From: Myxococcota bacterium
Lineage (GTDB): Bacteria > Myxococcota_A > UBA9042
Direction of reading: 5' to 3'
Assembly: GCA_044347905.1 (NCBI GenBank)
Contig: JBIKTV010000001.1
Location: forward strand, 1-55,126
Length of the DNA stretch: 55,126 nucleotides
Every line of letters begins with the position of its first letter. Within the stretch, counting starts at the first letter, position 1. Below the pieces are notes generated by a model. It did not search any database. It was not told the DNA's origin and worked only from the letters and a program-made list of their open reading frames with translations. Shown one piece after another: positions 22,550 through 55,126 of the stretch. A program made the position numbers and the translations under genes.

Positions 22550-22742
22550 GAATTCGCCGCAGGGCTATCGCAAGAACCGCTGGACCGCCCACACCGTCAT
22601 TCCCGCGAAGGCGGGAACCCAGGCGAATGGTTTGGTTTTAGCCTGGGCCCCCGCCTCCGCGGGGGTGACGAAGGGGGCCAATTGGACCGCGCGGTCGTCT
22701 TGTGACCGCAGATCCATGCTTCTTGCGATAGCCCTGGAATTC
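22550..22742. repeat. REP/MITE-like structured element: 16-nt perfect inverted repeats flanking three nested hairpins
   Basis: agggctatcgcaagaa (22561..22576) has its exact reverse complement at 22720..22735, and each copy has an adjacent gaattc. Internal hairpins: tcccgc-gaag-gcggga (22601..22616), cccaggc...gcctggg (22617..22647), ccccgc-ctcc-gcgggg (22649..22664). Confidence 0.55.
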
Positions 22743-22832
22743 ACCGGCGTCAAGGTTGCCGATCGCCAAGCTGATTGGCTATGCTATTGGCGCTTGCGGC
22801 CAGAGTTCTGGTCGGGCTGGGTGGTTCGACTT

Positions 22833-25800: not shown

Positions 25801-26030
25801 GCTTCCGCTTCGCCGACGGCAGCATTTCCGTCAACGGCAAGCAGAGTTACTCGCCGCTGGACATCACTGTCCCCAGCGACGCGTGCAAGAGCCTGTCCAC
25901 CGGCACCCAGAGCACGGTGTTTATGGTCAAGTCGGCTAAGCTGCCGATTGTCAACGTATTTTCAATGTACTCGCTGATTTCCGGCAAGTTTGGCTCGCCG
26001 CTCATGCAGAACCCGGCGATGCTGCGCTAG
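22833..26030 (+). CDS. Large Cys-rich lipoprotein: Myxococcus-type cysteine-rich repeats, a central beta-rich domain, about 5 EGF/cbEGF repeats and a C-terminal fibrinogen-like (CDM..GGGW) domain
   Basis: ORF 22632..26030 trimmed to the ATG at 22833. Lipobox LVVLGGC. Repeats CxDxNPCTxDxC. cbEGF signatures DIDEC/DINEC/DVNEC with CxCxxGYxGNGxxC. SGTYWLLLAGSPVQVSCDMVTEGGGWTLV matches the fibrinogen-related-domain core. Confidence 0.85.
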   Translation: MVLFLRVQLGHFAVRGVANWALTLMALVVLGGCLETEFGPAIGDGGGQDLAQLTDSQGDGAASTDSSAGSDAQEDTAVIADADAGLSCPGNPGCSCKDYADCGAGACVQTAAGKRCAAFCVEGNCDPGAICGALAVDIPGAATSTKFGICLPRWPTDCVACKDNSVCANPADPLAACVDPTGSPAASAGAGGWFCAASCKQDADCSPGRKCKTSAGRDGKDHQACVPTDGLCSCSPLAIDVSATTDCFNTGASGGAGVGKCKGVRACLSSGLSACSAAVPKLETCNGADDDCDGSIDESSDATPICDDQQACTQDSCSGKGGCVHLPTSVTCSDDDPCTGPDGCEMGECTGAKLDCGDGNPCTADSCAQDTGCSYAAVNGGCDDGDKCSLSDQCLNGQCVGGKSATCDDDNPCTNDWCDPAKGCTALPNDATCTDDNACTGADFCKGGACFGPVLACDDGWGCTLDSCDPAGGCSFKPTSSGCGQAQVPYALAMDCSETAFEGWRVTAQGVGLAEPQPPLVAWKLDDQPAMGGTGQCTLNINNGKNLACGWGQNQIEAYADSPWLDLMAVPGGSALVLRFESAGLWGSGWSASVQTREQGQAWKPLIAKMDPSGALWGKVNLNVPQLAGKLVQLRFQFTNASCSDSTGTGWFLRKVSLAVDPCANNNGGCASTALCSVGGDGSAICTCKTGYSGNGKTCADIDECKNPAPVCASGKTCTNTPGGYTCGCPAGYTGDGTTCTDINECANGTAGCASTATCTNTQGSFSCTCKSGYSGNGKICSDINECAVGLAGCATSTQATCTNLPGSFQCACKAGYTGNGKTCADVNECAVGLADCATTTAATCTNVPGSFTCACKPGYLGNGKTCQFYGSLELPAPSCKAIKTANPAATSGTYWLLLAGSPVQVSCDMVTEGGGWTLVTYKNDLALSAWNKVPGWQWLAADFQTALTAAQIKALQAVSTEGRQTYVGLCSRQAHYFSAQSNLYDRAFGFRFADGSISVNGKQSYSPLDITVPSDACKSLSTGTQSTVFMVKSAKLPIVNVFSMYSLISGKFGSPLMQNPAMLR
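24813..25440 (+). repeat. Tandem EGF-module coding repeats (about 126 nt each) inside the 22833..26030 CDS
   Basis: Five successive CxxxxxCTN.PGS[FY]xCxCxxGYxGNGKxCxDI[ND]EC units are visible in the translation. Confidence 0.7.
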
Positions 26031-40346: not shown

Positions 40347-40524
40347 ATTCAGGGGTCAAGAAAATGACCCCTGAAATCCTGGCCCCGCGCCCCTACTAGG
40401 TGGGCCGCAAGCGCTCCGGCCCCGCACGATGTCCCCCTATTGGCCGAGTCCATCTGGGCAGAGTCACCGCTTCCATGGCCGGCAGCGCCGCGGCGAGCCC
40501 TGGCCCCCTTTTTTGGATCCTCAC
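40347..40524 (+). repeat. Copy A of a ~178-nt intergenic repeat (hairpin plus a 58-nt invariant core); candidate cis-regulatory element, sRNA or MITE
   Basis: Aligns with 49309..49485. The first 97 nt differ at 8 positions. The 58-nt run ggccccgcgcccctactaggtgggccgcaagcgctccggccccgcacgatgtccccct (40381..40438) is identical in both copies. Confidence 0.8.
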
Positions 40525-42304: not shown

Positions 42305-44166
42305 AGCGGCTCCTGACTCCAGGCGGCGGGCCAGGGCGATCCGCGGTTGCCGGCGATGTCCTCACCTTGGCTGCCCACGGCAAAGTTGTTGAAATCGCTA
42401 AAGGCGCGCTCGCGGTTGGTGCGGCCGTCGCGCTGTCGCATGGGTCTGAGGCGGGTGCTTGCGGGGCCGGTGGATTCGGATTCACCGCTCGCTTCCAGCT
42501 GGCAAACCTCGTGGGGCCCCAGCCGCAGATCCACCAGCGCCCCTTGGCGAGCCGGATTGAGCAATTGCTCTTCATTGCCAATGGGATCGCTGACCGTCTT
42601 GGCCTTTAGCGTCCACACCAGCAGCGAAGTCGGATCCTGATCGGGATACGTCTCTGCCAGCAGATCGCGTTCGCCGTAGAACTGTTTGCCGATGTCGTTC
42701 TGGTTCACTGGCCCAGCCATCAGGCACAAACCGCAAAGCAAATCGCAGTCTTCTGGTAGGTCGACCACGCCCATCAGCTCGGCCACCAACGCCGATCGCG
42801 CCGCCGCGGCCCCGGTGGCCCTGACCGCGTGCTCCCAGTCCAGGTGGTAGCGGTCCACGCCCTTGCGCGACAGCCCGCCGATGTAGATGCGCTGACCCAC
42901 CAAGGCAAAGGCCTTTCGGCCCTTTTCAGCGTTGCGAGACAGAGCCTTGCCCGTCGGCAGATCCGCCCACAGCGGCAGGTTGGCGATCAGCTTGTCGGTC
43001 ACGCGGTTCTGCTGGTCGCTCATCTCTGCCAGGCGCCGCTCGCCATCGGCTGTGAGCACATCCACCCGGTCCAAAAGCAGAAGATCCTTGGCTTTATCCC
43101 GCCCGCAATTGGTCCAGTGGTCAAAGGCGTTGTAGGCCGCGCGGCCGCACTGCGTGACCAATTCGTCTGGCACATCCATGGTCTGCCGCGCCTGGTATTC
43201 GGCCGGCGCCGTCTTTTCCGCGTTGACCCCCGGCAGAATGCGCTCGCTGCGAAAGGCCAGCAGGTTCGCTCCGACTTTCCTCAGGGTTTGCGCGGCGATC
43301 GGCGGGCGCTCCGCTGCTGCCACCTGGCCGACCTGCACCACCAGCGCCACCTTCCAGCCCTGGGCGCGCTGCTGCAGAGTCAGCCCGCACAGTTCTTCAA
43401 GCGCGTGGGCCACCGGCTTGTTGTCCCGCCGACCGCGACCGCAGAACGGCTGCATGAACACCTGGGCCATGCGCTCACCGCCCGAGGCGATCACCGCGGC
43501 CCTCTCCATCGCATCGGCCAAAATTCCCACGTGCAGGTGCTGCAGGTAGCCGATGGTCGGAATATCGTCGCTGTGGTGCACGCGTTTCTGATACGCGCGT
43601 TGGGCGACACTCGCCAGAGAAAGCAGCGGCTTGTGGCCCACAAAGGTGAGCAGAAGGGTAAAGGGCGTGCGGTACGGCCGCGCCAGCACGACATGGGTAT
43701 ACGCTGCGTTGTCAAGCACTTCTGCTTCGCGGTACAGCAAAGAGCGCAGCAAGTGGCCGATCTGCACCGACGTCTCTGGACCAAAGCTCATCTGGCGGTG
43801 GCCGGCAAAGTTGGTCGACTGCCGCGAAGACAGCACGCCCAGGCTGGATTCCTCAAACAGTTCGCGCTCTGACACCGTGCCGCTGGGCTCAAACTGCTTG
43901 GGACGGGGCAGGGCGAGCAGGGTCAACGCCTGGCGCGCTTCGGCAGAACTGAGCGCCAAGCGCGTGCGATAGCCCACGGGCGAAGCGCTGTCCAGGCTCG
44001 ACGGCAAGCTGTAGCGCGTGCGCTTTTCACCAGGGCCCGCGGCGCGGATCTGCCGGCGCTGGCGCTCTTGGCTAGGCGGTGGGGCGATCGCCACGACCTC
44101 GATCGGCTTGCCGTCGCCGCGATCGGCAAAAGGCGGGCTGTGGCGGCTGCTGCTGGGGCTGCGCAT
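42268..44166 (-). CDS. Hypothetical 632-aa protein, no family recognised by eye
   Basis: Part of ORF 42268..44616, with the start set at the ATG at 44166 so it does not overlap mgtE. Strong G/C third-position bias across the whole length. No P-loop, signal peptide or TM segment seen. The antisense ORF 42829..43872 is Arg/Gln/His-rich shadow. Confidence 0.6.
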   Translation of the reverse strand: MRSPSSSRHSPPFADRGDGKPIEVVAIAPPPSQERQRRQIRAAGPGEKRTRYSLPSSLDSASPVGYRTRLALSSAEARQALTLLALPRPKQFEPSGTVSERELFEESSLGVLSSRQSTNFAGHRQMSFGPETSVQIGHLLRSLLYREAEVLDNAAYTHVVLARPYRTPFTLLLTFVGHKPLLSLASVAQRAYQKRVHHSDDIPTIGYLQHLHVGILADAMERAAVIASGGERMAQVFMQPFCGRGRRDNKPVAHALEELCGLTLQQRAQGWKVALVVQVGQVAAAERPPIAAQTLRKVGANLLAFRSERILPGVNAEKTAPAEYQARQTMDVPDELVTQCGRAAYNAFDHWTNCGRDKAKDLLLLDRVDVLTADGERRLAEMSDQQNRVTDKLIANLPLWADLPTGKALSRNAEKGRKAFALVGQRIYIGGLSRKGVDRYHLDWEHAVRATGAAAARSALVAELMGVVDLPEDCDLLCGLCLMAGPVNQNDIGKQFYGERDLLAETYPDQDPTSLLVWTLKAKTVSDPIGNEEQLLNPARQGALVDLRLGPHEVCQLEASGESESTGPASTRLRPMRQRDGRTNRERAFSDFNNFAVGSQGEDIAGNRGSPWPAAWSQEPLWPAHRSTGGQP

Positions 44167-44344
44167 CGGGACTCCGCGGCAAAGATGGCCGGTCAAGATG
44201 GGCAATTGCGACAGACGGACGGCCTGCGTGTCAACCCTGCATCGGTCGCCTAACGATCGCGGGCCGCACCAGGGTAGGCGGCGCCGCCGTTTCGTGGTAT
44301 CGACGCGCGCCCCGGGGCTCGAGCCCGCGGCAGGAGGGGGTCTC

Positions 44345-45643
44345 ATGTCGGTCACAGAGCTGGTTGAACTGTGGGCAGATCTGAGCCAAGAGGCGCAGCT
44401 ACAAGGGTTCCGCGCTCTTGGCCGCGATGACGCGGAGGCGTTCTTCTCGTCCATTGCCTCCCGCGATGCCGCCGAGCTGCTGCTCTGCCTGCCGCCGTCC
44501 GAGCGCCGGACCTGGATGCGCTTGCTCGCCCCCGACGACGCCGCCGACCTTTTGCAGGAGGTCTCTGCGGAAGAGCGCATCGCCCTCCTTGGGCTGTTGG
44601 ATGAAGTAAATCGCAAGGAAGTCGCGGTCTTGCTCGCCTATGCTGAAGACGACGCCGGCGGCCTGATGTCGACCCGCTATGCGCGCTTGCGGCCAGAACT
44701 GCGCGTTGACGAAGCGCTCTTGTACCTCCGGCGCCAGGCAAAAGAGCACTTGGAGACCATCTACTACGTCTACGTCACCGATCAAGAGCAGCGCCTGCTC
44801 GGGGTTGTGTCGCTCCGGCAGCTGTTCCAGGCCCCTGCCCAGGCCACGGTGCGCGAAGTCATGCAACCGGCGGTGGTCACCGTACGCGAAGATAGCGATC
44901 AGGAAGCGGTTTCTCGGCTTTTTCGCCACTACGGCTTTCTCGCCATCCCGGTAGTCGACGGCGAAGATCACATCAAGGGCATCGTGACCATGGACGACAT
45001 CGTCGACGTGGTTGATGAAGAAGCTACCGAGGATGCACAGAAATTCGGCGGTATGGAGGCTCTGGATGACGCCTACCTGGACACGGGCCTTTGGCAAATG
45101 TTCAAGAAGCGCGCCGGTTGGCTCGCGGTGCTATTTGTCGGCGAAATGCTCACTGCCAGCGCCATGGCCCACTTTGAAGACGAGATCGCCAAGGCGGTCG
45201 TGCTGGCCCTGTTTGTGCCGCTGATCATCAGTTCTGGCGGCAATTCCGGCTCCCAGGCCTCGACATTGGTCATTCGCGCCATGGCCTTGGGCGAATTGCG
45301 GATGCGCGACGCCCTCAAAGTCGCCAAGCGCGAATTAGTGACAGGTTTTGCCCTGGGCGGCGTTCTGGCGGTCCTCGGCCTGCTTCGCGTGACATTGTGG
45401 GATGTTTTCTTTGGCAGTTATGGCGACCACGCCTTGCGGATCGGCTTTGTCGTCGGCATTTCTCTCATCGGCGTGGTGATGTTCGGCACCTTTGTCGGCT
45501 CGATGTTGCCAATCTTTTTGCGGCGGATGGGCTTCGATCCGGCCTCGGCCTCGGCCCCCTTTGTGGCGACTTTGGTCGACGTCACCGGCCTGCTGATCTA
45601 CTTCTCTGTTGCAAGTGCGGTTCTTGGTGGCACACTACTGTGA
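44345..45643 (+). CDS. mgtE: Magnesium transporter MgtE
   Basis: ORF 44018..45643 trimmed to the ATG at 44345 (ggaggggg RBS upstream). MgtE N-domain, tandem CBS (LLGVVSLRQL, IKGIVTMDDIVDV), TM domain with PLIISSGGNSGSQ and DVTGLLIYF. Confidence 0.95.
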   Translation: MSVTELVELWADLSQEAQLQGFRALGRDDAEAFFSSIASRDAAELLLCLPPSERRTWMRLLAPDDAADLLQEVSAEERIALLGLLDEVNRKEVAVLLAYAEDDAGGLMSTRYARLRPELRVDEALLYLRRQAKEHLETIYYVYVTDQEQRLLGVVSLRQLFQAPAQATVREVMQPAVVTVREDSDQEAVSRLFRHYGFLAIPVVDGEDHIKGIVTMDDIVDVVDEEATEDAQKFGGMEALDDAYLDTGLWQMFKKRAGWLAVLFVGEMLTASAMAHFEDEIAKAVVLALFVPLIISSGGNSGSQASTLVIRAMALGELRMRDALKVAKRELVTGFALGGVLAVLGLLRVTLWDVFFGSYGDHALRIGFVVGISLIGVVMFGTFVGSMLPIFLRRMGFDPASASAPFVATLVDVTGLLIYFSVASAVLGGTLL

Positions 45644-45748
45644 CGCGCGGGTGACGCCTGCGTCAATTCGTTGGTCGATGGGCCCCGGGGTGGTCAGCCT
45701 ACCAACCGACGAACCCTGACGCACAGTCGCCCGGCAGGAGCGGTTCAC

Positions 45749-46051
45749 GTGAATCATTTTTCGCTGCCTCTGACTGAAAGCCAGCTGGCGTCCTTGTCGG
45801 TGCGCCTGCGGGTTCTGGGAGATCCTGTGCGTTTGCGCCTGGTTCACCGCCTCGCCACGGGGCCCTGCGGTGTCTCAGAGCTGAGCCGGCATGTCGGTTC
45901 GACCCAGCCCAATGTGAGCAAACACCTCAAGGTTTTGCTCGGCGAGGGGGTGGTGGGCCGCACCCAAGTGCGCAATACGGCTATCTACGCGCTGATTGAC
46001 GACCAGGTGGCCAGCATGTGGAAGCTCGTCAAGGCGGCCGACGTGGAGTGA
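45749..46051 (+). CDS. ArsR/SmtB family transcriptional regulator
   Basis: GTG at 45749 after ggcaggag. LRVLGDPVRLRLVHRL, winged HTH VSELSRHVGSTQPNVSKHLKVL. Confidence 0.85.
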   Translation: MNHFSLPLTESQLASLSVRLRVLGDPVRLRLVHRLATGPCGVSELSRHVGSTQPNVSKHLKVLLGEGVVGRTQVRNTAIYALIDDQVASMWKLVKAADVE

Positions 46052-46385
46052 TCCACCGCGATTGTCCATGGAGTGGTGGCTGCCGTGCGGTTTGATGAGC
46101 CGAATCTGAAGGTGCTCACACGTTTGGCGAATCACGAAACCCTGCAAGACCTTGAAGGTGGTTTGTTGCACTCATTTGCTTTTGTCCGCATATCCACGGA
46201 CATTGGCTCAGTGTCTATTTGGCTGGCGTGCCTGCCTAACGACCGTCGAGTCCCTCCTCCGGGTCGCCTGAGCGCCGCGCCGCGATCAGCCCCGAGTTAC
46301 AGGTCCGCGGGCCACAGCGATTGGTGATCGCCTTGGGGAAGCGCTACCCTGCGTGACCGACCCGTCCTGGGCCGCCCGGAAGCCC

Positions 46386-47645
46386 ATGCCGCCCAACCCG
46401 TCCCCTGTTGCCGATGTGCCCTCGCCCAAGGGCGCCGCGGCCCGCCCGCCGATGTCAGAGCAGGGGCTGGTGTGGATTGTCGGCGCCGTGCAGTTCGCAA
46501 ACATCCTAGATTTCATGATGGTCATGCCGCTCGGCCCCGACTTTTCCCGCGCTTTGGGCATTCCGACCTCGCAGTTGGGCGTCATCGGCGGCACCTACAC
46601 CGCGGCGGCAGCGCTGGCCGGGCTGTTGGGCATGTGGTGGCTCGAGCGCTTTGACCGCCGCAAGGCGCTGGTGCTCTCCATGCTCGGGTTGGCCGCCGGC
46701 ACCGCTGCAGGGGCGTTTGCCACGGACCTGCCCACCCTGGTGATGGCGCGGGCTCTGGCGGGCTTTTGGGGCGGCCCCGCGACTTCTCTGTCCATGTCCA
46801 TGATCGCCGACGGGGTGCCGCCAGAGCGCCGAGGCCGGGCCATGGGCGCCGTCATGGGGGCCTTCGCAGCGGCTTCCGTGTTGGGCGTGCCCGCGGGTCT
46901 GGAGCTGTCGCGCCAAGGCGGCTGGCGCCTGCCGTTCTTTGCCGTGGCGGTCTTGGTGCTGGTGTTGGCGGCGGCGGCGTGGCGGGTGCTGCCCTCTATG
47001 CGCGGGCACTTGATCCACGGCGCGATCAAGGTCGACCCGCGGGCCCTTCTCAGCCGCCGCGCGCCGCTGCTGGCTCTTGCCGTGACCGGCCTGCTGATGG
47101 CGTCTTCCTTTACCCTCGTTCCCAACATTGCATCCTATGTGCAAGGGAATATGGGGTTTCCCAGAGAGGACTTGGGCCTGATGTACCTGCTTGGCGGCAG
47201 CATCAGCTTCTTTGCCACCCGCTTGGCCGGCAGGGCCGCGGACCATCTGGGGCTGGCGCAAGTGTCTACCGCGGGCGCGCTGCTCTTTGCGGCGGTCGTG
47301 GCCAGCGGATTCTTTGTCGATCCGTCGCCGCTGCCCGTGCCGGCGCTTTTTGTCGGCGTGTTTCTCTCCATGGGCCTGCGCAACGTCCCGTATAACACCC
47401 TGATGACACTAGTGCCCGGGCCGCGCGAGCGCGCCACGTTCCTGTCCCTTCAGTCTGCGGCCCAGCACTTGGCGGCTTCGGCCGGGGCGTTTGCTTCGTC
47501 GCGCATGTTGAGCGAACTGCCCAACCATCGACTCATGGGAATGGGAAAAGTGGCGGTATTTTCAATGGGTTTAACCGCTCTGTCCCTGCCGTTTCTGTGG
47601 TGGCTCAATTACGCCGTTGGTGCAGATCGCCGGCGAACGTCGTAG
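46386..47645 (+). CDS. MFS transporter
   Basis: ORF 46353..47645. Start uncertain (GTG 46353, ATG 46386 or 46452). About 12 hydrophobic segments. MFS loop motif LERFDRRKALVLS between TM2 and TM3. Confidence 0.8.
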   Translation: MPPNPSPVADVPSPKGAAARPPMSEQGLVWIVGAVQFANILDFMMVMPLGPDFSRALGIPTSQLGVIGGTYTAAAALAGLLGMWWLERFDRRKALVLSMLGLAAGTAAGAFATDLPTLVMARALAGFWGGPATSLSMSMIADGVPPERRGRAMGAVMGAFAAASVLGVPAGLELSRQGGWRLPFFAVAVLVLVLAAAAWRVLPSMRGHLIHGAIKVDPRALLSRRAPLLALAVTGLLMASSFTLVPNIASYVQGNMGFPREDLGLMYLLGGSISFFATRLAGRAADHLGLAQVSTAGALLFAAVVASGFFVDPSPLPVPALFVGVFLSMGLRNVPYNTLMTLVPGPRERATFLSLQSAAQHLAASAGAFASSRMLSELPNHRLMGMGKVAVFSMGLTALSLPFLWWLNYAVGADRRRTS

Positions 47646-47659
47646 CATCTGCATAGAAA

Positions 47660-49126
47660 TCACTCATCTAACAGCACCACTTCTTCGGCCTGGTGGCGGG
47701 CGGGTTGCCAGTGCAGCAGCTCCGCTTGGGTCCCGCAAATCCTAAGGAAAGTGTACTGGACCCGCTCGCGGGGCAGCAGCACGTCGTGGGTAAAGACGGC
47801 GATCCACGTGCCCGTATTAAAGTACCAGCCGCGGTGGGTGGGCAAGGCCAAGCGCTGCACACTCTCGTCGTGGGTATGGCCAAAAGTCACCAACGGCACT
47901 TCAAGCAAGCGGGCTATCCGCTCGGCCGCATTGGGCATTGGCTGACCTGTGGTGGTCGGATTGTCCCGCAGCAACAGCAGGGTACCGCCAACGGTCAGGG
48001 TGCTAAAGAAGAAGAAGTTGAGGGCGACGAACCACAGGGTCTTTGAGGCTGACCCCAAATCGGCGTGCTGGATCACATCAAACGCAAAGAACCACAGCGC
48101 GATGAGCAGCAACGCGGCCAGCATGGAAATCCCCATGGTGCGCAAGAGATTGCGGGCGATCGACTCCACAGCGGCCACCACGTCTCCGCGCAGATCCTTG
48201 AGCGCTTCAATGTCCAGCAGGCGCCGACCCAGCCCCGATTGCTCTGCCAAGGCCTCAAGCTCCGCTGCGTGGACCGCAGGCAGAGCGCTGGGCGGCAGCA
48301 ATTTCTTGAGGGTGAGGCGGCGCAGCCACTTGAAGGCAAAGGGTAACTGGCTGGTCGCCGCGCTCAAGAGCAGGGCCGGATTGTTGAGCAGCAGCCAGCG
48401 GCCGTAGCGAAAATTCGCCCGCGAAGAAGGGACCATAAACGTGATGGGGCCAAAGCCGTTGTAGAGATAGCGCTGGAAGAAATTGCCCAAAGGCTGGTCG
48501 AGTTCGGTGTCATCTGCAGCCAATTCACTTAGCTGGCCGCGCAGATACCAGCGGAAGGCATTCTCTGGGTCATACTGGCAGCCGTGCTCGATCCACACCC
48601 GCCCATGCTCGTGATAGAACCACGGGCGAAACTCCATGGCCTCTTGCGCCAACTGCTGGCCAGGACCGCCCAAGCGATCGACCTCCGCCGCTACAGTACG
48701 CCGCAAAACCGCCTGCACGGGCGGCCATTGCAGCTCAATGTCGTGGTTGCCCGGCAGAAACAGCAGTGGCACGCCGCCCATCAAGGCTCGGGCCAGCGCT
48801 TCTACAAAAGTGGGGTGGCCCAGGAGAATTTGCTCAAGGATTCTGGCAGCCAAGGCCGGGGTCAAAAAGGCCGGCGTGCGCCCTTCGCCGCGGCCATCCT
48901 CCTCCGGTTCTACGCGCAGCAAGTCAAAGGTGTCGCCGTTGAAGATCAGTTGCGGCTTTAGCCCCGCTTGGTCGGCGCCGATCGGATACGTGTCGCCACA
49001 GAGCCATTGGACAAAGCTGAGAAAGTCCTTGTCATAGAAAAACGCTTCCAGCGACCAGTAGCGCCCCGTATCGAGGTTCTTGCCGCGTCCCAAGTGGAAA
49101 TCCGAAAGGACGATCAGATCGCGCAT
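47660..49126 (-). CDS. Membrane-associated calcineurin-like metallophosphoesterase
   Basis: ORF 47660..49201 trimmed to the ATG at 49126. Motifs LSDFHLG (DxH), NGDTFDL (GDxxD), PGNHDIE (GNHD), FGHTHD (GHxH). Two hydrophobic segments near residue 370-420. Confidence 0.8.
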   Translation of the reverse strand: MRDLIVLSDFHLGRGKNLDTGRYWSLEAFFYDKDFLSFVQWLCGDTYPIGADQAGLKPQLIFNGDTFDLLRVEPEEDGRGEGRTPAFLTPALAARILEQILLGHPTFVEALARALMGGVPLLFLPGNHDIELQWPPVQAVLRRTVAAEVDRLGGPGQQLAQEAMEFRPWFYHEHGRVWIEHGCQYDPENAFRWYLRGQLSELAADDTELDQPLGNFFQRYLYNGFGPITFMVPSSRANFRYGRWLLLNNPALLLSAATSQLPFAFKWLRRLTLKKLLPPSALPAVHAAELEALAEQSGLGRRLLDIEALKDLRGDVVAAVESIARNLLRTMGISMLAALLLIALWFFAFDVIQHADLGSASKTLWFVALNFFFFSTLTVGGTLLLLRDNPTTTGQPMPNAAERIARLLEVPLVTFGHTHDESVQRLALPTHRGWYFNTGTWIAVFTHDVLLPRERVQYTFLRICGTQAELLHWQPARHQAEEVVLLDE

Positions 49127-49308
49127 GGTGCGGAGTCCCTCGGGCGAGTCGGCTGCCCAGCTGCGGTCAAGGTGAGGATCCCGCGGGCCGGCGCCCATCA
49201 CCGGGTGCGCGGGCAGTTCCGCAGCAATGCCGCAGGGCTCGCTGGGGGCAAGGGTACGCCGTCGCAGCGCCGGCCGTCAAATGCCGGTCCATGGATGGCA
49301 CGGGGCCG

Positions 49309-49485
49309 ATTCAGGGGGCAAGGAGATGCCCCCTGAATACCCGGCCCCGCGCCCCTACTAGGTGGGCCGCAAGCGCTCCGGCCCCGCACGATGTCCCCCT
49401 GTTGGATTGACCGATTGGGCCACGGCCACGCTTCCACGGCCGGTAGCGCCGCGGCGAGCGCTGGCCACTTTCTTGGCACCTCAGC
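49309..49485 (+). repeat. Copy B of the ~178-nt intergenic repeat
   Basis: See copy A. The invariant 58-nt core lies at 49343..49400. Hairpin tcaggggg-caaggagatg-ccccctga at 49311..49336. Confidence 0.8.
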
Positions 49486-49588
49486 CAAAGCCAGCTTCAG
49501 CCCTTGACGGCCTGAGCCGCCAATGTGTACGGTGCGGTTGCTGGCCGTTCGGGACCAGCGCCCTACACCTGCCGATTCAGATTAAGAA

Positions 49589-50122
49589 ATGTCTCAAACT
49601 TCTTGCGCTCTGCCGCGCAACTATGCGCTCAAGTTGGGTCTGTTGGCTGCGCTGGTTGCGTTGGCTTGCGCCTGTGCGGTCGACAATCCGCCTCAAGACT
49701 GGGCTCCCGTGCAGCGGGCGTCCTTTGAGTGCGCCGTCCAGCCGATCTTTGCGCGCGAGTGCTCCATGCCCGACTGCCATGGCAACAGCGCGCGGCGTTT
49801 GCAGATTCTGGCTCCCGGCCGCATGCGCTTGGCCGCGGAGCTGACCAAAGCCCTGGCCGCTCAGCCCGCCGAAGAGAGGGAGGCCGGCCATCACCCGCTT
49901 TTGACGCCGGCAGAGATCGACTTCAACTTTGCCCAGGCCCGCAGCATGGTTATCCCGGGCCAGGCGCCTGAAGACAGCGCGTTGCTGAATCGGCCCCTGG
50001 CGGTCGCAGCGGGCGGCATGTACCACGTTGAGGCAGGAGACGTATTTGCAAGCGCACTTGACCTCGACTATGTGACCCTACAGGTTTGGATTGAAGGCGC
50101 AGGCAAGGAGATGTGCAAGTGA
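49589..50122 (+). CDS. Secreted/lipoprotein-like protein with a cytochrome-c-like CX4CH(G) motif
   Basis: Signal peptide LKLGLLAALVALACAC. VQPIFARECSMPDCHG (motif at 49760..49780) resembles planctomycete-type cytochrome-c-domain openings. First gene of a co-directional cluster. Confidence 0.6.
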   Translation: MSQTSCALPRNYALKLGLLAALVALACACAVDNPPQDWAPVQRASFECAVQPIFARECSMPDCHGNSARRLQILAPGRMRLAAELTKALAAQPAEEREAGHHPLLTPAEIDFNFAQARSMVIPGQAPEDSALLNRPLAVAAGGMYHVEAGDVFASALDLDYVTLQVWIEGAGKEMCK

Positions 50123-51048
50123 AACTGCATTTCTTTGCCGCAATCGGCCTCACCGCCGTTGGACCGCTGCTCTGCGGCTTTTCTGCCGGTTCCAGCTTTG
50201 AGACCTCTGCCGATGTGGGCGGCGGTGGCGGGTATACGTTTGTAGGATCAAGCACTTCCCATGGCCTCGACTGCGCTTCATGCCACCAGAGCAACGCTAC
50301 CTCCGGTCGACTGTCGCTCGCTAGCAACCCGCCCGGCCTGTTTGATCGCGGCTTTGTGCCCGGAACAAACTACCTCATTGCCGTGCGTTTAGCTCAGGAA
50401 GTCAAAGGTTTAGACCGCAACGGCACCTGTGAAGCAGAGCAGGGCGGCTGCAATCGCAACGGCTTTGTGGCGGAGTTTCTGGGGCAGAACGGCCAGCCGA
50501 TTGGGCAATTGTGCACAGATAATGGGGTGCTGAGCGATCAGGGCTGTGACAACGACGCTGGGAAGGAGACCACGCTGTTCAGCGGGGCCAAGGCCGTGAG
50601 CGGCGTGTCGCTGGAGCAACCGACGATCTGCAGCGGCAGCGCGGGCCAGGATCCGCCCGGGTGTGTCGACGTCGCCGCGCTGCAAGCGGCTGGAAAGTCC
50701 CAGAGCGAGATCGACAAAGTCCTCCTGTCAGCGGTCAAGGGCCGGACAAGTTGGCATTTTCGCTGGCGGGCGCCCCAGAGTGGTGCAGCGGTGGCCTTTC
50801 ACCTAGGCGCTGTGGACGGCGATGGCGGCGTGGGTACCTCACCAAACCTGAACGATTACAGCGGTGATGTCGTCTATGCCGTCCATCGTTCTGTGCCTGT
50901 GGAGGGCTCCGCAGCTGAGGTGGCCGCCGGTTGCGGTGCGGCGCGTCCGAGGCCAAGCACCGGCTGGAGCGCAATTCTCGCCGGGGCCTCGCTGGCGCTC
51001 ATCGCGCGTCGCTGGAACGGAAAAAGGAGAGAACGCAATGACTTCTGA
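50113..51048 (+). CDS. Lipoprotein-like protein with a single CXXCH heme-binding motif and a GC-hydrophobic-Arg C-terminal tail
   Basis: GTG at 50113 or 50119 (aggcaaggag RBS at 50101..50110). Signal FFAAIGLTAVGPLLCG. CASCH at 50272..50286. Tail AAGCGAARPRPSTGWSAILAGASLALIARRWNGKRR (50923..51048). Confidence 0.65.
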   Translation: MQVKLHFFAAIGLTAVGPLLCGFSAGSSFETSADVGGGGGYTFVGSSTSHGLDCASCHQSNATSGRLSLASNPPGLFDRGFVPGTNYLIAVRLAQEVKGLDRNGTCEAEQGGCNRNGFVAEFLGQNGQPIGQLCTDNGVLSDQGCDNDAGKETTLFSGAKAVSGVSLEQPTICSGSAGQDPPGCVDVAALQAAGKSQSEIDKVLLSAVKGRTSWHFRWRAPQSGAAVAFHLGAVDGDGGVGTSPNLNDYSGDVVYAVHRSVPVEGSAAEVAAGCGAARPRPSTGWSAILAGASLALIARRWNGKRRERNDF

Positions 51049-52180
51049 GTCGCAGTGGCGCGTACTGGCGCGTTCTGGCCTGGCCCTTGGGCTTGCGTGG
51101 GCGGCCCTTGGCGCTGCAGCTCCGGCCCTGGCGGTCGAGCCGACCTCTTGCGACGTCAAGACAGGCGCCTCCTGTGCTTGGAATGAGGGCTGCGACTGCG
51201 ACCACGACGGCTATGTGGTCAACAAGTCCAAGTCGATCAAGTATTGCCACCTTGAGAAATGCCCCCTCGACTCTGATGACAAGAACGTCAATAAGCTCGG
51301 GGTTGTATCGGCCAACAACGCCGATGGCGATGGCTGGACCAAGGCCTATGACTGCGACGACAACGACAAGTGCATCGGCAAAGTCTGTGGCGTGTCGACC
51401 TGCACAACCGCACCGCCAGACCCCGACAACGACAAAGACGGCGTCCCCGCCAGCCAGGACTGCAACGATGCTGACGCCAACATCAAGCCCGGATCGGGCG
51501 TAGCCTGCTGTAATTGCGCCAATTTGACCGATCCAGCCAAGGTCAAAGCGCTGGGCTGCAACGGTTGCCCGCTCAGCCAGACCGGGCCTGCCGACGCGGG
51601 ATCCACCGATACGACAGGCGCCGACGCGGGTTCCTCGCCTGCCGACACCTCAGCCCCGGACGTTGCAGCAGTCGATAGCGCCATTCCACCTGCGGACACA
51701 GCTGCCGAGGACGCGGCCACGGACGGCGGGCAGACGGGCGCCGAAACAGGAGCGGATAGCGCTAGTTCTGTTGCCAAAGACGCCGGCCCAGCGCTCACGG
51801 ACAGCGGCAGCTCCTTTGACCCCTCGGCGCAGGTATTTGTCGGCAGTGGCTCCGTCGTCCATGGCGACCCGCCCGCGCCGGGATGTACGGCCGCTCCGCA
51901 GGCTTCTCCAGCGATTCTCCCGCTTTTTGCGGGCCTATTGCTGGCCTTTGGGGCTCGCCGCTGGCGCTTGCGGCGTGCGCTCTGGACCCTTGGGCTGCTG
52001 GCCATGGCGACTGCGGGGTGTGTGCGGGTGGAGCCTTGGCAGCGCCAGCGCCTTGCCCATCGCTGCATGGTCCTGGGGCGCAACGGCGGCGAAAAAGACC
52101 TGGAGCAGCACGCTTTTCAGTATCGCGAAGGCTCCGCAGGCGGCTTTGGCGGTGGCGGCGGAGGCTGCGGGTGCAACTAG
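51038..52180 (+). CDS. Secreted Cys/Asp-rich protein with MopE-like putative metal-binding repeats and a GC-hydrophobic-Arg tail, reading in frame (no stop) into a DUF4266 lipoprotein module
   Basis: ATG at 51038 with an aaggaga RBS (51024..51030). Signal peptide ...AAPALA. Repeats NADGDGWTKAYDCDDNDKC and DNDKDGVPASQDCNDADANIKPG. Tail PGCTAAPQASPAILPLFAGLLLAFGARRWRLRR (51878..51976), then the DUF4266-like sequence up to the stop at 52180. Confidence 0.6.
   Translation: MTSESQWRVLARSGLALGLAWAALGAAAPALAVEPTSCDVKTGASCAWNEGCDCDHDGYVVNKSKSIKYCHLEKCPLDSDDKNVNKLGVVSANNADGDGWTKAYDCDDNDKCIGKVCGVSTCTTAPPDPDNDKDGVPASQDCNDADANIKPGSGVACCNCANLTDPAKVKALGCNGCPLSQTGPADAGSTDTTGADAGSSPADTSAPDVAAVDSAIPPADTAAEDAATDGGQTGAETGADSASSVAKDAGPALTDSGSSFDPSAQVFVGSGSVVHGDPPAPGCTAAPQASPAILPLFAGLLLAFGARRWRLRRALWTLGLLAMATAGCVRVEPWQRQRLAHRCMVLGRNGGEKDLEQHAFQYREGSAGGFGGGGGGCGCN
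51968..52180 (+). CDS. DUF4266-type small lipoprotein (possible independent TTG start; otherwise the C-terminal module of the 51038 ORF)
   Basis: An in-frame TTG at 51968 would give MRRALWTLGLLAMATAGC (lipobox), followed by VRVEPWQRQRLAHRCM...QYREGSAGGFGGGGGGCGCN, the characteristic DUF4266 ending. Confidence 0.5.
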   Translation: MRRALWTLGLLAMATAGCVRVEPWQRQRLAHRCMVLGRNGGEKDLEQHAFQYREGSAGGFGGGGGGCGCN

Positions 52181-52221
52181 TTTCCGATACACCGCCGTCT
52201 CGGCCTTGCCTATGGCTCGCT

Positions 52222-53430
52222 GTGGCGATGCTGGGGCAATTGACCTGCCTATCGGCCTTTGCCGCGCCTCGGCCTGCCGCCAAAGGGCCCGCTCACCCTG
52301 CTGCTGTAGCCCCGCCGCAAGCCAGCACCGCTGCTTTGGACGAAGCCGGTGCCGTCGACCCGGTGGTGGAATTCGTGCCGGCGCCTGAGCCCAGCGAGCC
52401 CGTCGAGCCGCCCACCCCCATTGGCATGTCTGCAGAAACAAGGACGAATTACTATACGGACAATGACAACAACCGCATCGTTACGCCTACGGTCAACGTC
52501 TCTGCCGACATAGGCGAGCGCTGGGCCGTCGCTGGCCACGCGGCGATTGACATGATGACTTGTGCTTCCGTCGATGTGGTCAGCGCCGCCACGGCCAAGG
52601 GCTACTTTCAGGAAAACCGTCAGGAATACGGCGGTTCCGTGACGACCCGTCGCGACCTGCTCAAGCTCACGCTGGGCGCAGTTCACTCGCAGGAGAACGA
52701 CTATTCCTCAGCCACCGGCTCGATCGCCATCAGCGACGAATTCGCCAAGCGCAACACCACCTTGAGCTTGGCCTACAGCTTTACCGGCTCCGATGTCGGC
52801 CGCGCCCACGACCCAAGTTTTTCGCGGCGTTTGGACAGCCACGCGCTGACCGCCTCTTGGACTCAGGTGCTGAGCCGCAGCTGGGTGGCGCAGTTTTCAG
52901 GCTTTGTGGGCGTGCTAGATGGCTTTCAGTCAAGCGTTTACCGCTTTGTGCATTTTGCCGACGGCACCTCCGGGCCTGAGGTGGCCCCCGATCTGCGGGT
53001 GCGTCAGGCGCTGGCTGCGGAAGTGCGCGGCTCGCTGACCCCCCAGTGGTTCACAGGCGCAAGCTATCGGCTTTACAGCGATTCGTGGGGGCTCCTCAGC
53101 CACACCGGCGAACTAACGGCGACCTACGCGCCCAACGACTGGCTCAGCCTGCGCCTGCGCGACCGCGTCTATCAGCAGCGCGGCGCCGACTTCTACCACT
53201 CCGTCTACGACCGGCCGATGCGCTACATGACCATCGACCGCGAGCTCGGGGCCCTTTACGGCAACCTGATCGGCTTGAAAGCGGCTATCGATCTGGGCGG
53301 TCTGGGCAGCACCCGCACCTGGCAGCTCGACCTCAAGTACGACTGGATGTGGCAGAAATTCGAAGACTTCCGCTGGCTGCCAGAGCGGCGGATGTCCATG
53401 GTCGAAGCTGGCCTGCAGTGCGCCTTCTGA
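52222..53430 (+). CDS. DUF3570 family protein (predicted outer-membrane beta-barrel)
   Basis: ORF 51883..53430 trimmed to the GTG at 52222 or ATG at 52228. Alternating beta-strand-like pattern with an aromatic C-terminus (MVEAGLQCAF). Canonical position after DUF4266 and before TlpA/ApbE. Confidence 0.7.
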   Translation: MAMLGQLTCLSAFAAPRPAAKGPAHPAAVAPPQASTAALDEAGAVDPVVEFVPAPEPSEPVEPPTPIGMSAETRTNYYTDNDNNRIVTPTVNVSADIGERWAVAGHAAIDMMTCASVDVVSAATAKGYFQENRQEYGGSVTTRRDLLKLTLGAVHSQENDYSSATGSIAISDEFAKRNTTLSLAYSFTGSDVGRAHDPSFSRRLDSHALTASWTQVLSRSWVAQFSGFVGVLDGFQSSVYRFVHFADGTSGPEVAPDLRVRQALAAEVRGSLTPQWFTGASYRLYSDSWGLLSHTGELTATYAPNDWLSLRLRDRVYQQRGADFYHSVYDRPMRYMTIDRELGALYGNLIGLKAAIDLGGLGSTRTWQLDLKYDWMWQKFEDFRWLPERRMSMVEAGLQCAF

Positions 53431-53516
53431 CCTCCGCTGAGTACCCACGCCGCCTCGCGCGTTGTCCGCACGGCCAGGGTCCAGCGCCCGGGCAAATTCC
53501 CCAAGGAGAATCCAAG

Positions 53517-54050
53517 ATGATCGCACCCCTGCTGACCGCCGTTGCCTGTCTTGCGCTGCTCGGCGCCCCCCAACTCGACGGGTCGACCCCGCTGCAGCCC
53601 CTGGCGGCCAGCCCCGCGCTGAATCAAGCGGCCCCGCCGATCAAGGGCGCGCTCATGGACGGAAAACCCTATGACCTCAGTGCGATGCGCGGCCAAGTCG
53701 TGCTGGTGGATTTCTGGGCGACCTGGTGCGAGCCGTGCAAGCTGAGCCTGCCGCGCTATGCCGCCCTGGAGAAGAAGCTGGGATCCCAGGGTTTTCACAT
53801 TCTGACCGTGAGCGTTGACGAAGAGACGGACGTGCTCAAGCGCTTTATCGCCGCGACCAAGCTGACCCTGCGGGTGCTGCACGACCCCGAGTCCAAGATC
53901 GCCGAGCGCTACCGCCCCGCCAAGATGCCGACCGCCTATCTGGTGGGCAAGGACGGCAAAATCACTTGGATACACTCGAGTTTTGTCGTGGGTGACGAAG
54001 CCAAGGTGGAAGCCGAAGTGATCAAGGCCCTGGCCCAGCCCGCGCCGTGA
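53517..54050 (+). CDS. TlpA/ResA-family periplasmic thiol:disulfide oxidoreductase (thioredoxin fold)
   Basis: ORF 53046..54050 trimmed to the ATG at 53517 (aaggag at 53503..53508). Signal peptide. VVLVDFWATWCEPCK active site. MPTAYLVGKDGKI. Confidence 0.9.
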   Translation: MIAPLLTAVACLALLGAPQLDGSTPLQPLAASPALNQAAPPIKGALMDGKPYDLSAMRGQVVLVDFWATWCEPCKLSLPRYAALEKKLGSQGFHILTVSVDEETDVLKRFIAATKLTLRVLHDPESKIAERYRPAKMPTAYLVGKDGKITWIHSSFVVGDEAKVEAEVIKALAQPAP

Positions 54051-55126
54051 GTCGCACCTTGCGCGCGTTGGCGGCGCTGGCGGCGGCGGTTGTCCTTTAT
54101 GCAGGGCAAGCTCGTGAATCCGTGGCTAGTGAGCCACAGACAAAGGCCAATTCCCAGTTTGAGGTGCCGCATCCCGACCACGCCAAGGGGCCATCGGTCG
54201 CCCAGTTGGCGCTGCGTCCTGGCGAACGGGTTGGCTTGGCTGTGGCCCGGCGGCTGGGCAAACCGAGTCGCGACCGGGCATTGTACAAGCTGATCGCACT
54301 ATTTGACGCCACAGGTCGATTTTCGACATCGCAACTGAACGATCAAGCTCTTAACTCTATGGATAAACCGCTTGATTCGTTGGTGTCGTCGCTGGCCCCA
54401 GGTGTCGACGCCCTCCTCATTGACCGCGCCAACCGCTGGCATTTTGCCGGTCAGATGCGCCAACGCCTCAGCGACGCCCGCGGCGACGAGCCGGCGATGC
54501 AGTCCTTTCGCCAGCCGATCATGAGCACGGCCATTGACGTGGTTCTGCCCGCGGGGCCTGAGGCGGAGCGCCAAGCCCAGAAGGTCTTTGCAATTTTCCG
54601 CGAGGTGGAAAGCGAAATGAATGAGTGGAAGCCGGAGTCGCCGACCTCTCTCATCAATCGCCAAGCTGGCATCGCCCCGGTGGCCGTGAGTGCCGAGCTT
54701 CGCCAGGTCCTGCGCGTGGGCTTGGAGGTCAGCCGCAAGAGCCATGGGGCCTTTGACCCGACCTGGGCGGCGCTGTGGGGCCTGTGGGATTTCTCAGCCA
54801 AATCGCAGGGTAGGGTGCCCACGGCCGACGAACTGGCGCCGCGCCTGCCGCTCATCGACTACCGCCAGGTGCAGATCGACGAGCCCGCCGGCACCGTCAA
54901 GCTGGCCAAAGCCGGCATGAAGCTGGGGCTGGGCGGCATCGCCAAGGGCTGGGCGCTGGCTCAGGCGGGGATTTGGCTTCGCGATCAAGGGGTGGCGAGC
55001 TTTTCTCTCTCTGCGGGAGGCCAAGTGCTGGTCGCAGGGCTGCACGGCCAGCGGCCCTGGCGCGTGGGGATCCGCCATCCGCGCGGTCCGGCGAGCGCGG
55101 TGTTGGCGGTGCTGAGCGTGCGGGAT
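54047..55126 (+). CDS. apbE: FAD:protein FMN transferase (ApbE family) with a ~165-aa N-terminal extension; partial, runs off the window end
   Basis: Not in the ORF track because there is no stop in the window. I translated the frame from the GTG at 54047 (GTGA overlap with the tlpA stop), and it stays open for 360 codons to 55126. Signal peptide LRALAALAAAVVLYAGQA. ApbE blocks MSTAIDVVLP, EVESEMNEWKPESPTSLINRQAG, GAFDPTWAALWGLWDF, LGLGGIAKGWALAQAG. Confidence 0.85.
   Translation, partial: MSRTLRALAALAAAVVLYAGQARESVASEPQTKANSQFEVPHPDHAKGPSVAQLALRPGERVGLAVARRLGKPSRDRALYKLIALFDATGRFSTSQLNDQALNSMDKPLDSLVSSLAPGVDALLIDRANRWHFAGQMRQRLSDARGDEPAMQSFRQPIMSTAIDVVLPAGPEAERQAQKVFAIFREVESEMNEWKPESPTSLINRQAGIAPVAVSAELRQVLRVGLEVSRKSHGAFDPTWAALWGLWDFSAKSQGRVPTADELAPRLPLIDYRQVQIDEPAGTVKLAKAGMKLGLGGIAKGWALAQAGIWLRDQGVASFSLSAGGQVLVAGLHGQRPWRVGIRHPRGPASAVLAVLSVRD

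Follow-up and report, generated by a model that had tools for sequence, protein, structure and literature searches.

The DNA analysed here is a stretch of 55,126 nucleotides (nt) from a Myxococcota bacterium (contig JBIKTV010000001.1, positions 1 to 55,126, assembly GCA_044347905.1; hereafter the window), and the subject of this report is the gene cluster at its end, on the + strand at 49589-55126, where six co-directional and mostly overlapping open reading frames (ORFs) encode seven protein modules at a G+C content of about 64%. In order, these are a lipoprotein with a CX4CH motif (g1), a secreted protein with a CXXCH motif (g2), a Cys/Asp-rich protein (g3) that ends in a DUF4266 module, a DUF3570 protein, a TlpA/ResA-like thioredoxin and an ApbE transferase (Table 1). 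The cluster is one conserved operon of the flavinylation-associated envelope system defined by DUF3570, DUF4266, ApbE and a thioredoxin-like protein, in a Myxococcota-type genome, and g1 and g2, as judged from sequence and gene order, are two unannotated and constant partners of this DUF3570 subfamily.

Organization of the operon

The close packing of the genes recorded in a first-pass annotation, which had proposed an envelope redox or metal cluster, was confirmed, including the 86-nt gap between the DUF3570 and TlpA genes and the GTGA overlap at 54047, where the GTG start of the ApbE gene overlaps the TlpA stop; the coordinates given there for the g1 and g2 motifs and for WCEPC were exact (Table 1). 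The g2 and g3 ORFs overlap by 11 nt, and an alternative g2 start (GTG 50119) would turn its 10-nt overlap with g1 into a 4-nt GTGA overlap. The g3 ORF (51038-52180) encodes 380 amino acids (aa), and DUF4266, previously listed as a separate gene, is in fact its C-terminal 53 residues, in frame and with no intervening stop. The designation of g2 as a lipoprotein also had to be given up: it is g1 that is exported through a lipobox (C29, kept in 52 of 55 homologues), and g2 has an ordinary signal peptide and a C-terminal tail composed of a Cys, a transmembrane (TM) helix and an Arg cluster.

All matches to the four Pfam families exceed the curated cut-offs: PF14086 for DUF4266 (E 3.7e-17, 63.4 bits against a cut-off of 27, aa 331-380 of g3), PF12094 for DUF3570 (E 8.8e-29, 101 bits against 25), AhpC-TSA/Redoxin/Thioredoxin for the TlpA-like protein (E 3e-23) and PF02424 for ApbE (E 6.6e-47, 160.7 bits, from ORF residue 159). 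The same contig was found again in several metagenomes (same-organism contigs L001, L002 and L005), and on L001 the ApbE gene is complete (465 aa); a strong hairpin (13-bp stem) lies 42 nt past its stop, and what comes beyond it, a holA-like and a metallo-β-lactamase gene, is unrelated, so that the unit ends after ApbE. At the other end, a divergent gene lies upstream of g1, separated from it by a 387-nt spacer. A sigma-70-like promoter consensus was looked for around the cluster and not found, and Rfam families, riboswitches included, gave zero matches at 49000-55126.

Table 1. Features of the cluster in window coordinates
Feature	Position	Strand	Description
g1	49589-50122	+	177-aa lipoprotein; CX4CH-G (C58, C63, H64; nt 49760-49780), H146; putative monoheme c-type cytochrome or Cys/His metal site
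g2	50113-51048	+	311 aa, secreted; CXXCH nt 50272-50286; reeler-like β-sandwich ~aa 65-260; Cys(274)-TM-Arg-rich tail
g3, N-terminal part	51038-51886	+	signal peptide; Cys/Asp-rich domain aa 33-180; low-complexity linker; 'PAPGC' Cys (C283, nt 51884-51886)
Tail-to-signal junction within the g3 ORF	51887-52018	+	TM helix PAILPLFAGLLLAFGA; Arg cluster RRWRLRR; second hydrophobic segment; lipobox LLAMATAG/C (predicted cut before Cys); predicted TM hairpin
DUF4266 module	52019-52180	+	mature lipoprotein of 53 aa; C-terminal end GGGGGGCGCN (CXC)
DUF3570	52171-53430	+	predicted 16-strand outer-membrane β-barrel; C-terminal Phe; IDMMTCAS-VDVVSAAT nt 52549-52593; alternative start 52222
TlpA/ResA-like periplasmic thioredoxin	53517-54050	+	signal peptide; WCEPC nt 53724-53738
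ApbE signal peptide and ~130-aa extension	54047-54520	+	fold without known match; lineage-specific
ApbE FAD:protein FMN transferase domain	54521-55126	+	PF02424; runs past the window end

Conservation of the gene set

Word-indexed homologue searches returned 18 clusters for g1, 21 for g2 and 3 for the N-terminal part of g3, with all g1 and g2 clusters derived from Myxococcota or 'Deltaproteobacteria' metagenome-assembled genomes, and on these searches g1 and g2 passed for tiny lineage-specific families; this proved wrong, as profile hidden Markov models (HMMs) place them beside nearly every metagenomic DUF3570 gene. In each of the distinct loci with a g2 relative (12/12), down to about 27-31% identity, g1 adjoins g2 and, where the contig permits, DUF4266-DUF3570-(TlpA)-ApbE lie within a few kb, so that the supposed synteny of the upstream trio with this quartet was borne out. 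Four gene orders occur: that of the window; TlpA-ApbE-g1-g2-g3/DUF4266-DUF3570 (L018, L019); g1-g2-DUF4266-DUF3570-ApbE, without g3 or TlpA (L020); and divergent operons (L012, L021). The arrangement is not due to chance, because the same gene set recurs with differing flanks in every related locus recovered. The plasmid collection gave zero matches in a tblastn search with DUF3570.

A wider metagenome scan with a 20-sequence DUF3570 alignment yielded the 80 loci most similar to the window DUF3570 (31-69% identity), a sample that leaves the Gly-containing Chlorobium-type subfamily outside, and HMMs derived from the alignments of g1 (A1) and g2 (A2) were used to search their ORFs. Both g1 and g2 were present in 23/23 fully flanked DUF3570 loci (at least 2.5 kb on each side), and one or both in 45/50 partly flanked loci (at least 1.8 kb on one side); the genes that the first-pass annotation had regarded as a local prefix to the quartet are thus constant, previously unannotated partners of this subfamily. 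Among the fully flanked loci, 12 have the g1-g2 pair upstream of DUF3570 and 9 have it downstream, and in 5 of these 9 there are two tandem pairs. Tandem g1-g2-g1'-g2' arrays after DUF3570 are seen in many loci (L032, L033, L045, L060, L066, L072, L095-L098, L100), the second copies having their own motif variants (e.g. CGQLACH, CSDCH) and a plain TM-Arg C-terminal anchor.

In a Pfam census of the 101 nearest ORFs in 26 metagenomic loci, annotated neighbours were sporadic (Thioredoxin 5, DsbD_TM 3, Thioredoxin_7 3, Rieske 3, extracytoplasmic function sigma factor 3, ApbE 2, CusB/HMBD/OEP 2). Judged by these gene contents, the constant core of this DUF3570 subfamily is g1, g2, DUF4266 and DUF3570, and ApbE and TlpA, which are in the operon within the clade of the window, are often located elsewhere in other clades. 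Every complete locus recovered from that clade has ApbE within its operon, the contigs L016, L010 and L018 ending before it. In one relative (L007, 4058-7779, minus strand) the cluster divergently adjoins genes for a di-heme oxidoreductase (DHOR, 789 aa) and for a multiheme cytochrome of 450 aa (Cytochrome_C554, which also matches MtrC/MtrF domains faintly), which may be coincidental neighbours or a pointer to the electron partner.

The Cys-His motif proteins g1 and g2

The motif reads CSMPDCH in g1 and CASCH in g2, and each belongs to the most conserved part of its protein. Across 55 g1 homologues with a median identity of 29%, P52, C58, C63, H64, R80, E109 and H146 are kept in 55/55, and across 46 g2 homologues, also with a median identity of 29%, G45, C54, C57, H58, Y87, P221 and G236 are kept in 46/46; in the metagenomic loci CX4CH is present in every g1 match that spans the motif region, and CXXCH in every g2 match that spans the N-terminal part. 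Sequences of the CXXCH/CX4CH type, ending in a Cys-His dyad, are the classical signature of heme c attachment, and CX4CH is a genuine attachment motif in cytochrome c3 of Desulfovibrio, while Cu(I) sites are typically of the CXXC, Met-rich or His-brace kind. The invariant H146 of g1 would suit bis-His heme ligation.

The AlphaFold2 (AF2) model of g2 has a mean predicted local distance difference test score (pLDDT) of 71.6, with a confident β-sandwich core (aa 65-260) and a low-confidence CXXCH segment. Its sole significant fold match in the PDB is the reeler domain of F-spondin (2zot_A, E 1.5e-5, TM-score 0.63 normalised to the target), and the weaker matches include the copper protein YcnI (E about 0.01). 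At the sequence level g2 has no Pfam match and its PDB search returned noise alone, and the NCBIfam model NF041895 (choice_anch_V) is matched by 15/15 g2 homologues near the CXXCH segment, the window g2 reaching 29.4 bits against a cut-off of 42. The core of g2 matches the reeler domain by fold, and heme binding is not established for the reeler-type fold. No likeness to a cytochrome c family was detected for g1, compared by sequence only, or for g2, whose fold is reeler-like.

DUF3570, a predicted outer-membrane barrel with tandem acceptor motifs

The AF2 model of DUF3570, computed from a 74-sequence alignment, has a mean pLDDT of 87, a predicted TM-score (pTM) of 0.80 and 16 long β-strands, and the protein is predicted to be a 16-strand outer-membrane barrel. 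In a Foldseek search with this model, the best 50 matches listed were all outer-membrane barrels, including OmpG, FadL, AlgE, OprD and BcsC, with probability 1.00. The C-terminal Phe of the window protein is shared by 58 of 151 family sequences (150 representatives and the window), and a C-terminal aromatic residue is common. Short turns of 2-6 residues follow the even strands of the model, and loops of 4, 14, 3, 7, 23, 4, 24 and 7 residues follow the odd ones. Short periplasmic turns that alternate with long loops are the usual topology of outer-membrane proteins, the long-loop side being normally external. The two acceptor motifs, IDMMTCAS and VDVVSAAT (residues 109-124, counted from 52222), occupy the end of strand 3 and the 14-residue β3-β4 loop, and by the topology rule both would lie on the long-loop, normally external side of the barrel, the side that holds most of the other invariant residues (Y78/D80/D82, R133, S156/E158/D160, Y240/R241, E253/R259, R283-W289).

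In 150 DUF3570 representatives the family pattern is D-x-x-[ST]-x-A-[ST], twice in tandem. At site 1, Asp is kept in 147 sequences, Ala in 146 and the acceptor Ser/Thr in 144; at site 2 the corresponding counts are 139, 140 and 141. The tandem sites of the window protein stand at the family position and retain the acceptor Ser/Thr and, before it, Asp (-6), Ser/Thr (-3) and Ala (-1), with Gly not kept; measured against the family alignment, the window DUF3570 is typical of its own subfamily, though the published [S/T]GA[S/T] is not literally matched. A further TGAS (aa 278-281, counted from 52222) lies inside a β-strand and was judged a chance occurrence. The barrel itself has no heme-type motif, and its partner proteins have one each.

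A tail-to-signal fusion of g3 and DUF4266

The N-terminal domain of g3 (aa 33-180) is strongly conserved, with about 16 Cys, H56, H71 and acidic motifs of the DxDxDG type, and is followed by a low-complexity linker of Ala, Asp, Thr, Ser, Pro and Gly. Only 3 further homologues of this part were found in a word-indexed search of 5.8 billion proteins. The comparison with MopE made in the first-pass annotation is weak at the level of models, since the window g3 does not match the MopE model PF11617 even with an E-value limit of 10, and 3/10 homologues match it weakly (best E 0.004); genuine PF11617 MopE-repeat proteins with Cys-TM-Arg tails occur at the g3 position in two distant loci (L012, L052). 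A canonical ApbE-type motif, D-V-K-T-G-A-S, at the mature N-terminus of g3 (residues 39-45, nt 51152-51172), between the invariant C38 and C46, was considered as a third substrate site of ApbE and not upheld; L014, the closest relative, and L026 have Pro in place of its Ala, and the sequence in distant homologues is TAPS.

The Cys-TM-Arg architecture of the g2 and g3 tails was recognised by inspection. With the MYXO-CTERM model TIGR03901, the g3 tail scores 14.2 bits, below the cut-off of 20, and the window g2 tail gives no match; 2/15 g2 homologues match sorting-tail models weakly. In g3 the sorting-type tail is internal and not C-terminal, with DUF4266 coming after it: an unbroken series of 'PPxPGC', TM helix, Arg cluster, hydrophobic segment, lipobox Cys and DUF4266 was found in the window and in L007, L008, L013, L014, L016 and L019, and the tail part of it in L011. 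In 19 metagenomic loci of the g1-g2-DUF4266-DUF3570 type (e.g. L049, L053, L056, L057, L086, L092), g2 itself is fused through its tail to DUF4266, and a stand-alone DUF4266 is found in L012, L020 and L021 and, with its own Met, in 23 metagenomic loci, where it comes first in the cluster in all those examined in detail. A nested DUF4266 gene with its own start was rejected as the general explanation, because L013, L011 and L019, unlike some other fused loci, have no suitable start codon before the charged region, and the fusion recurs with g2 in those 19 loci.

The ORF that joins tail and signal looks like a polyprotein giving two lipid-anchored envelope proteins. The tail helix would run out-to-in, leaving the Arg loop in the cytoplasm, and the second segment would act as a lipoprotein signal that re-exports DUF4266; cuts near the tail Cys and at the lipobox would then yield two lipid-anchored proteins in a 1:1 ratio. 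DUF4266 ends in GCGCN, a C-terminal CXC, and the conserved Gly-Cys codons of this end (...GCGCN-stop, 52171-52180) form the GTG at 52171, which is most likely the DUF3570 start, as it provides a signal peptide and as independent gene calls on related contigs (L007, L008, L003, L006) place an equivalent start about 10 nt before the DUF4266 stop. The 41-nt gap described earlier before DUF3570 is therefore probably a 10-nt overlap with the g3 stop, and the position of the GTG within the conserved codons implies a translational coupling fixed by a protein motif, with DUF3570 as the third protein on the same message.

The thioredoxin and ApbE

The best NCBIfam models for the TlpA-like protein are ResA (6e-24, 85 against 170 bits) and TlpA (4.5e-18, 66 against 230 bits), both under their equivalog cut-offs. 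Neither the ORFs at 44000-55126 nor the genes called on L001 from 10 kb upstream to about 6 kb downstream of TlpA include a DsbD gene. ApbE combines its transferase domain with a signal-like N-terminus (VSRTLRALAALAAAVVLYAG), and it does not reach the NCBIfam equivalog PRK10461 (49.9 against 498 bits). The N-terminal extension of ApbE, noticed earlier as unexplained, is coding and has no Pfam or PDB match; it is kept only in the closest relative (L014, 14058-14462), with 36% identity against 65% for the catalytic domain, and is unmatched in the ApbE proteins of other relatives (336-403 aa, mostly 348-352). Because it is confined to the window organism and this relative, it is not part of the conserved machine, and to judge from its distribution it is a lineage-specific addition.

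Surroundings of the cluster

A nested palindrome (49297-49353) lies in the divergent promoter region 5' of g1, with a perfect core ATTCAGGGGGCA-N6-TGCCCCCTGAAT at 49309-49338, that is, perfect 12-nt arms TTCAGGGGGCA-N6-TGCCCCCTGAA within a longer inverted repeat. A second intergenic copy 9 kb away (40348-40375) has a compensatory G/C-to-T/A change, with 0.01 matches expected by chance; beyond the window, matches to the palindrome were confined to the same-organism contigs L001, L002 and L005, with none in the other loci examined. It may be a repeated hairpin element or serve as an operator. Elsewhere in the window, about 40 kb from the cluster, an operon for CusCBA-like heavy-metal efflux occupies 3582-10151 and encodes OEP, an AcrB/CusA-type pump and a CusB-like protein that contains a heavy-metal-binding domain, and the context is typical of Myxococcota, with large secreted proteins carrying EGF/cEGF and Dictyostelium-type repeats (22632-26030), an RCC1-repeat protein (1133-3103) and a 1691-aa fusion of Ser/Thr kinase, GAF domain and sigma-54 activator (32113-37188).

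Relation to known systems

Clusters of ApbE, DUF3570, a thioredoxin-like protein and DUF4266 were catalogued in 2021, DsbD being present in 227 of them and missing from 316 (Méheust et al., eLife 2021, PMC8238504), and the lack of a nearby DsbD places the window cluster in the second class. In that work the DUF3570 of Chlorobium luteolum was flavinylated by its ApbE at two [S/T]GA[S/T] sites, the modification being abolished when both acceptors were mutated, and this took place although the protein was expressed without its signal peptide and recovered in the insoluble pellet; the C-terminal CXC of DUF4266 was described as a possible site of redox cycling, and the physiological role of the clusters was said to remain uncertain ('remains uncertain'; PMC8238504). 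The window cluster agrees with the published DsbD-type flavinylation clusters in the joint presence of the four Pfam families, in the CXC of DUF4266 and in the position of the tandem DUF3570 sites, and differs from them in its motifs (TCAS/SAAT instead of [S/T]GA[S/T]) and in its thioredoxin, which is of the AhpC-TSA/Redoxin type and not PF13899. The main text of the 2021 paper (PMC8238504) is silent on barrels and on copper and refers to the outer membrane a single time, in a section on another subject, and no mention was found there of the partners with Cys-His motifs, of sorting-tail proteins or of a polyprotein fusion. The earlier view of the quartet as lacking an assigned function therefore holds for its role and not for its biochemistry, which is partly established by the flavinylation experiments; nor is the quartet undescribed, having been published in 2021. 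The quartet being known, what appears to be undescribed in the available literature is its extension by constant heme-motif partners, the prediction of an outer-membrane barrel for the flavinylated protein, the presence of tails for surface sorting and the polyprotein that joins tail to signal.

With regard to the tails, JDVT-CTERM proteins occur beside DUF4266/DUF3570/TlpA genes in a few Pseudomonadota, where the mature sorted protein has been suggested as a partner, and Cys-TM-Arg tails serve cell-surface sorting, the MYXO-CTERM proteins requiring a type II secretion system (Haft, 10.1101/2023.06.07.544157). The tails of g2 and g3 share with MYXO-CTERM and JDVT-CTERM the tripartite structure of Cys, TM helix and Arg cluster; the difference is that in g3 of the window, and in g2 of the 19 loci mentioned above, the signal is internal and runs into a lipoprotein signal and DUF4266.

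The porin-cytochrome conduits across the outer membrane include MtrCAB, the Pcc complexes of Geobacter and the fused Cyc2. The resemblance of the window cluster to them lies in the proposed logic only: an outer-membrane barrel, shared at the level of predicted structure only, a redox protein on the periplasmic side and a redox protein at the surface, for which a sorting route of its own would be required here as in the conduits; Cyc2, too, has a barrel of about 16 strands and only one cofactor. No sequence relationship was detected between the conduits and the window cluster, and no barrel of the MtrB or Cyc2 type was among the best 50 fold matches listed. In addition, the conduits carry a multiheme wire or a barrel-fused heme domain, whereas the partners in the window have single motifs and the barrel would bear covalent flavin mononucleotide (FMN), and unlike the conduits the window cluster adds a CXC lipoprotein and a thioredoxin. 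By analogy, the cluster may work like the porin-cytochrome conduits without being a member of them.

The window TlpA shares with the ResA/CcmG/TlpA oxidoreductases a secreted thioredoxin fold and the WCxxC motif, and it is encoded beside two proteins of the CXXCH type. ResA and CcmG keep apocytochrome cysteines reduced, and a thioredoxin of this type together with DsbD is needed for the maturation of CXXCH proteins, while TlpA of Bradyrhizobium keeps the ligand cysteines of ScoI and CoxB reduced.

Proposed function and alternatives

The interpretation favoured here, tentatively and with a likelihood put a little short of even, is that the cluster encodes a porin-flavin-cytochrome electron conduit across the outer membrane, made of parts unlike those of the porin-cytochrome complexes. 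In the periplasm, two FMN would be attached by ApbE to the barrel precursor before it folds, an order of events that fits the flavinylation of the signal-less, insoluble Chlorobium protein (PMC8238504), and after insertion by BAM the flavin-bearing loop L2 would come to lie inside the barrel or at its mouth. On the periplasmic side, g1 would dock as a heme c lipoprotein, and g2, joined in this clade by the Cys/Asp-rich g3, would be sorted to the surface through the MYXO-CTERM-like tails and accept electrons outside. The CXC lipoprotein DUF4266 might bind or plug the barrel, its amount being fixed at 1:1 with that of the preceding tail-bearing protein by the polyprotein, and the TlpA/ResA-like thioredoxin would keep the cysteines of CXXCH, CX4CH and CXC reduced for heme ligation, or else feed electrons in; for an order from thiol to flavin to heme, the mitochondrial Erv1-cytochrome c relay provides a precedent. 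As the terminal partner, a metal at the surface or outside the cell (Fe(III) or Cu(II)) or some other oxidant is probable, and electrons might flow in one direction or the other. The suggestion in the first-pass annotation of a flavinylation-dependent machine extending across periplasm and outer membrane is in keeping with the predicted barrel, the in-operon ApbE and the acceptor motifs.

Several observations weigh against an electron conduit. The outer placement of the flavin loop would follow from the general topology rule for outer-membrane proteins and the strand pattern, and not from coordinates; the Gly of the published motif is found in only 22/150 representatives at site 1 and 5/150 at site 2, and the window reads TCAS and SAAT; and the distance across the membrane would have to be bridged by only two hemes and two flavins. 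The heme c nature of g1 and g2 is itself put in question by the lack of any PDB or Pfam sequence match for g1, PSCyt-type models included, by the predicted β-sandwich of g2, a fold unlike known c-type cytochromes, and by the fact that the broad g2 family has no invariant second His or Met that could act as distal heme ligand. Moreover, ApbE is adjacent in only 2/26 of the broader loci, so that flavinylation may not be universal in this DUF3570 subfamily, and no conserved donor or acceptor gene was found nearby in the census of 26 loci.

The main rival explanation, although regarded as unlikely, is that the cluster serves copper or iron handling. Here the Cys...Cys-His sites of g1 and g2 would bind Cu(I) or another metal and TlpA would reduce the ligand cysteines; the DUF3570 barrel would be the passage and its flavins would reduce surface Cu(II) or Fe(III), with g3 and g2 capturing the metal outside and g1 receiving it in the periplasm. 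Such a function agrees with the richness of g3 in Cys, Asp and His, with the genuine PF11617 proteins at its position in L012 and L052, with the presence of YcnI among the weaker fold matches of g2, with the CusB/HMBD/OEP genes beside the cluster in 2/26 loci, with the VIT1 iron transporters reported in 25 published clusters (PMC8238504) and with the lack of an invariant distal ligand in g2. However, the window g3 fails the MopE model and the metal-related neighbours are sporadic, and the occurrence of CXXCH and CX4CH in two unrelated folds is the signature of heme c, atypical for Cu(I), to which the suitability of the g1 H146 for bis-His ligation can be added.

Distinctly less probable is the periplasmic thiol-flavin relay depicted in the 2021 paper, in which electrons would pass from a DsbD or CcdA encoded elsewhere to the thioredoxin-like protein, the CXC of DUF4266 and the DUF3570 flavins and end on periplasmic targets, the outer membrane remaining uncrossed and g1 and g2 being substrates or terminal acceptors. 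The 227 published clusters that contain DsbD and the possible redox cycling of the CXC speak for it (PMC8238504), as do the translational coupling of TlpA to ApbE in the window and the census of 101 ORFs, where thioredoxin-fold genes are the commonest annotated neighbours (Thioredoxin 5, Thioredoxin_7 3, DsbD_TM 3). The relay is opposed by the confident outer-membrane barrel model of DUF3570, with its conserved residues on the long-loop side, by the absence of DsbD from the contig around the cluster, and by the distribution of the genes, thioredoxin and DsbD being missing from most loci and g1 and g2 being always present. Furthermore, the presence of thioredoxin and DsbD does not call for a thiol-to-flavin step, because the maturation of CXXCH proteins requires them. 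A non-redox role is the least probable of the alternatives, and a very unlikely one: the barrel and DUF4266 would form a platform for the export or anchoring of the tail-bearing g2 and g3, and the Ser/Thr-Ala and Cys-His motifs would be structural (loop, disulfide). The constant pairing of the barrel with Cys-TM-Arg-tailed proteins, the translational fusion of DUF4266 to those tails, the wealth of conserved and probably disulfide-forming cysteines in g2 and g3, and the usually non-adjacent ApbE in the wider subfamily could be understood in this way, but ApbE is in the operon in every complete locus of the window's clade, a homologous DUF3570 was flavinylated experimentally at equivalent tandem sites (PMC8238504), and the invariant His right after the second Cys in g1 and g2 has no disulfide role.

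Implications

If the cluster is an electron conduit, a wider proposition can be formulated, which is held to be doubtful at present: DUF3570 'flavo-porins', with covalent FMN on an inward- or outward-facing loop, together with a monoheme g1, a monoheme reeler-type g2 and the CXC lipoprotein DUF4266, would constitute a widespread and unrecognised class of electron conduits unlike the multiheme complexes, with subunits derived from a tail-to-signal polyprotein cut into two lipid-anchored proteins. In summary, the data shift the working model of these clusters from a periplasmic thiol-flavin relay to a possible electron or redox-coupled metal route across the outer membrane, and the thioredoxin and DsbD genes found in them may serve the maturation of CXXCH proteins and not the electron supply proposed in 2021. 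Models based on the g1 and g2 alignments could be used to annotate hundreds of 'hypothetical' genes, and the gene architecture, in which sorting tails are repeatedly found fused to lipoprotein signals, is unusual. A route of this kind could bear on extracellular electron transfer, on iron and copper acquisition and on redox stress in Myxococcota and other bacteria.

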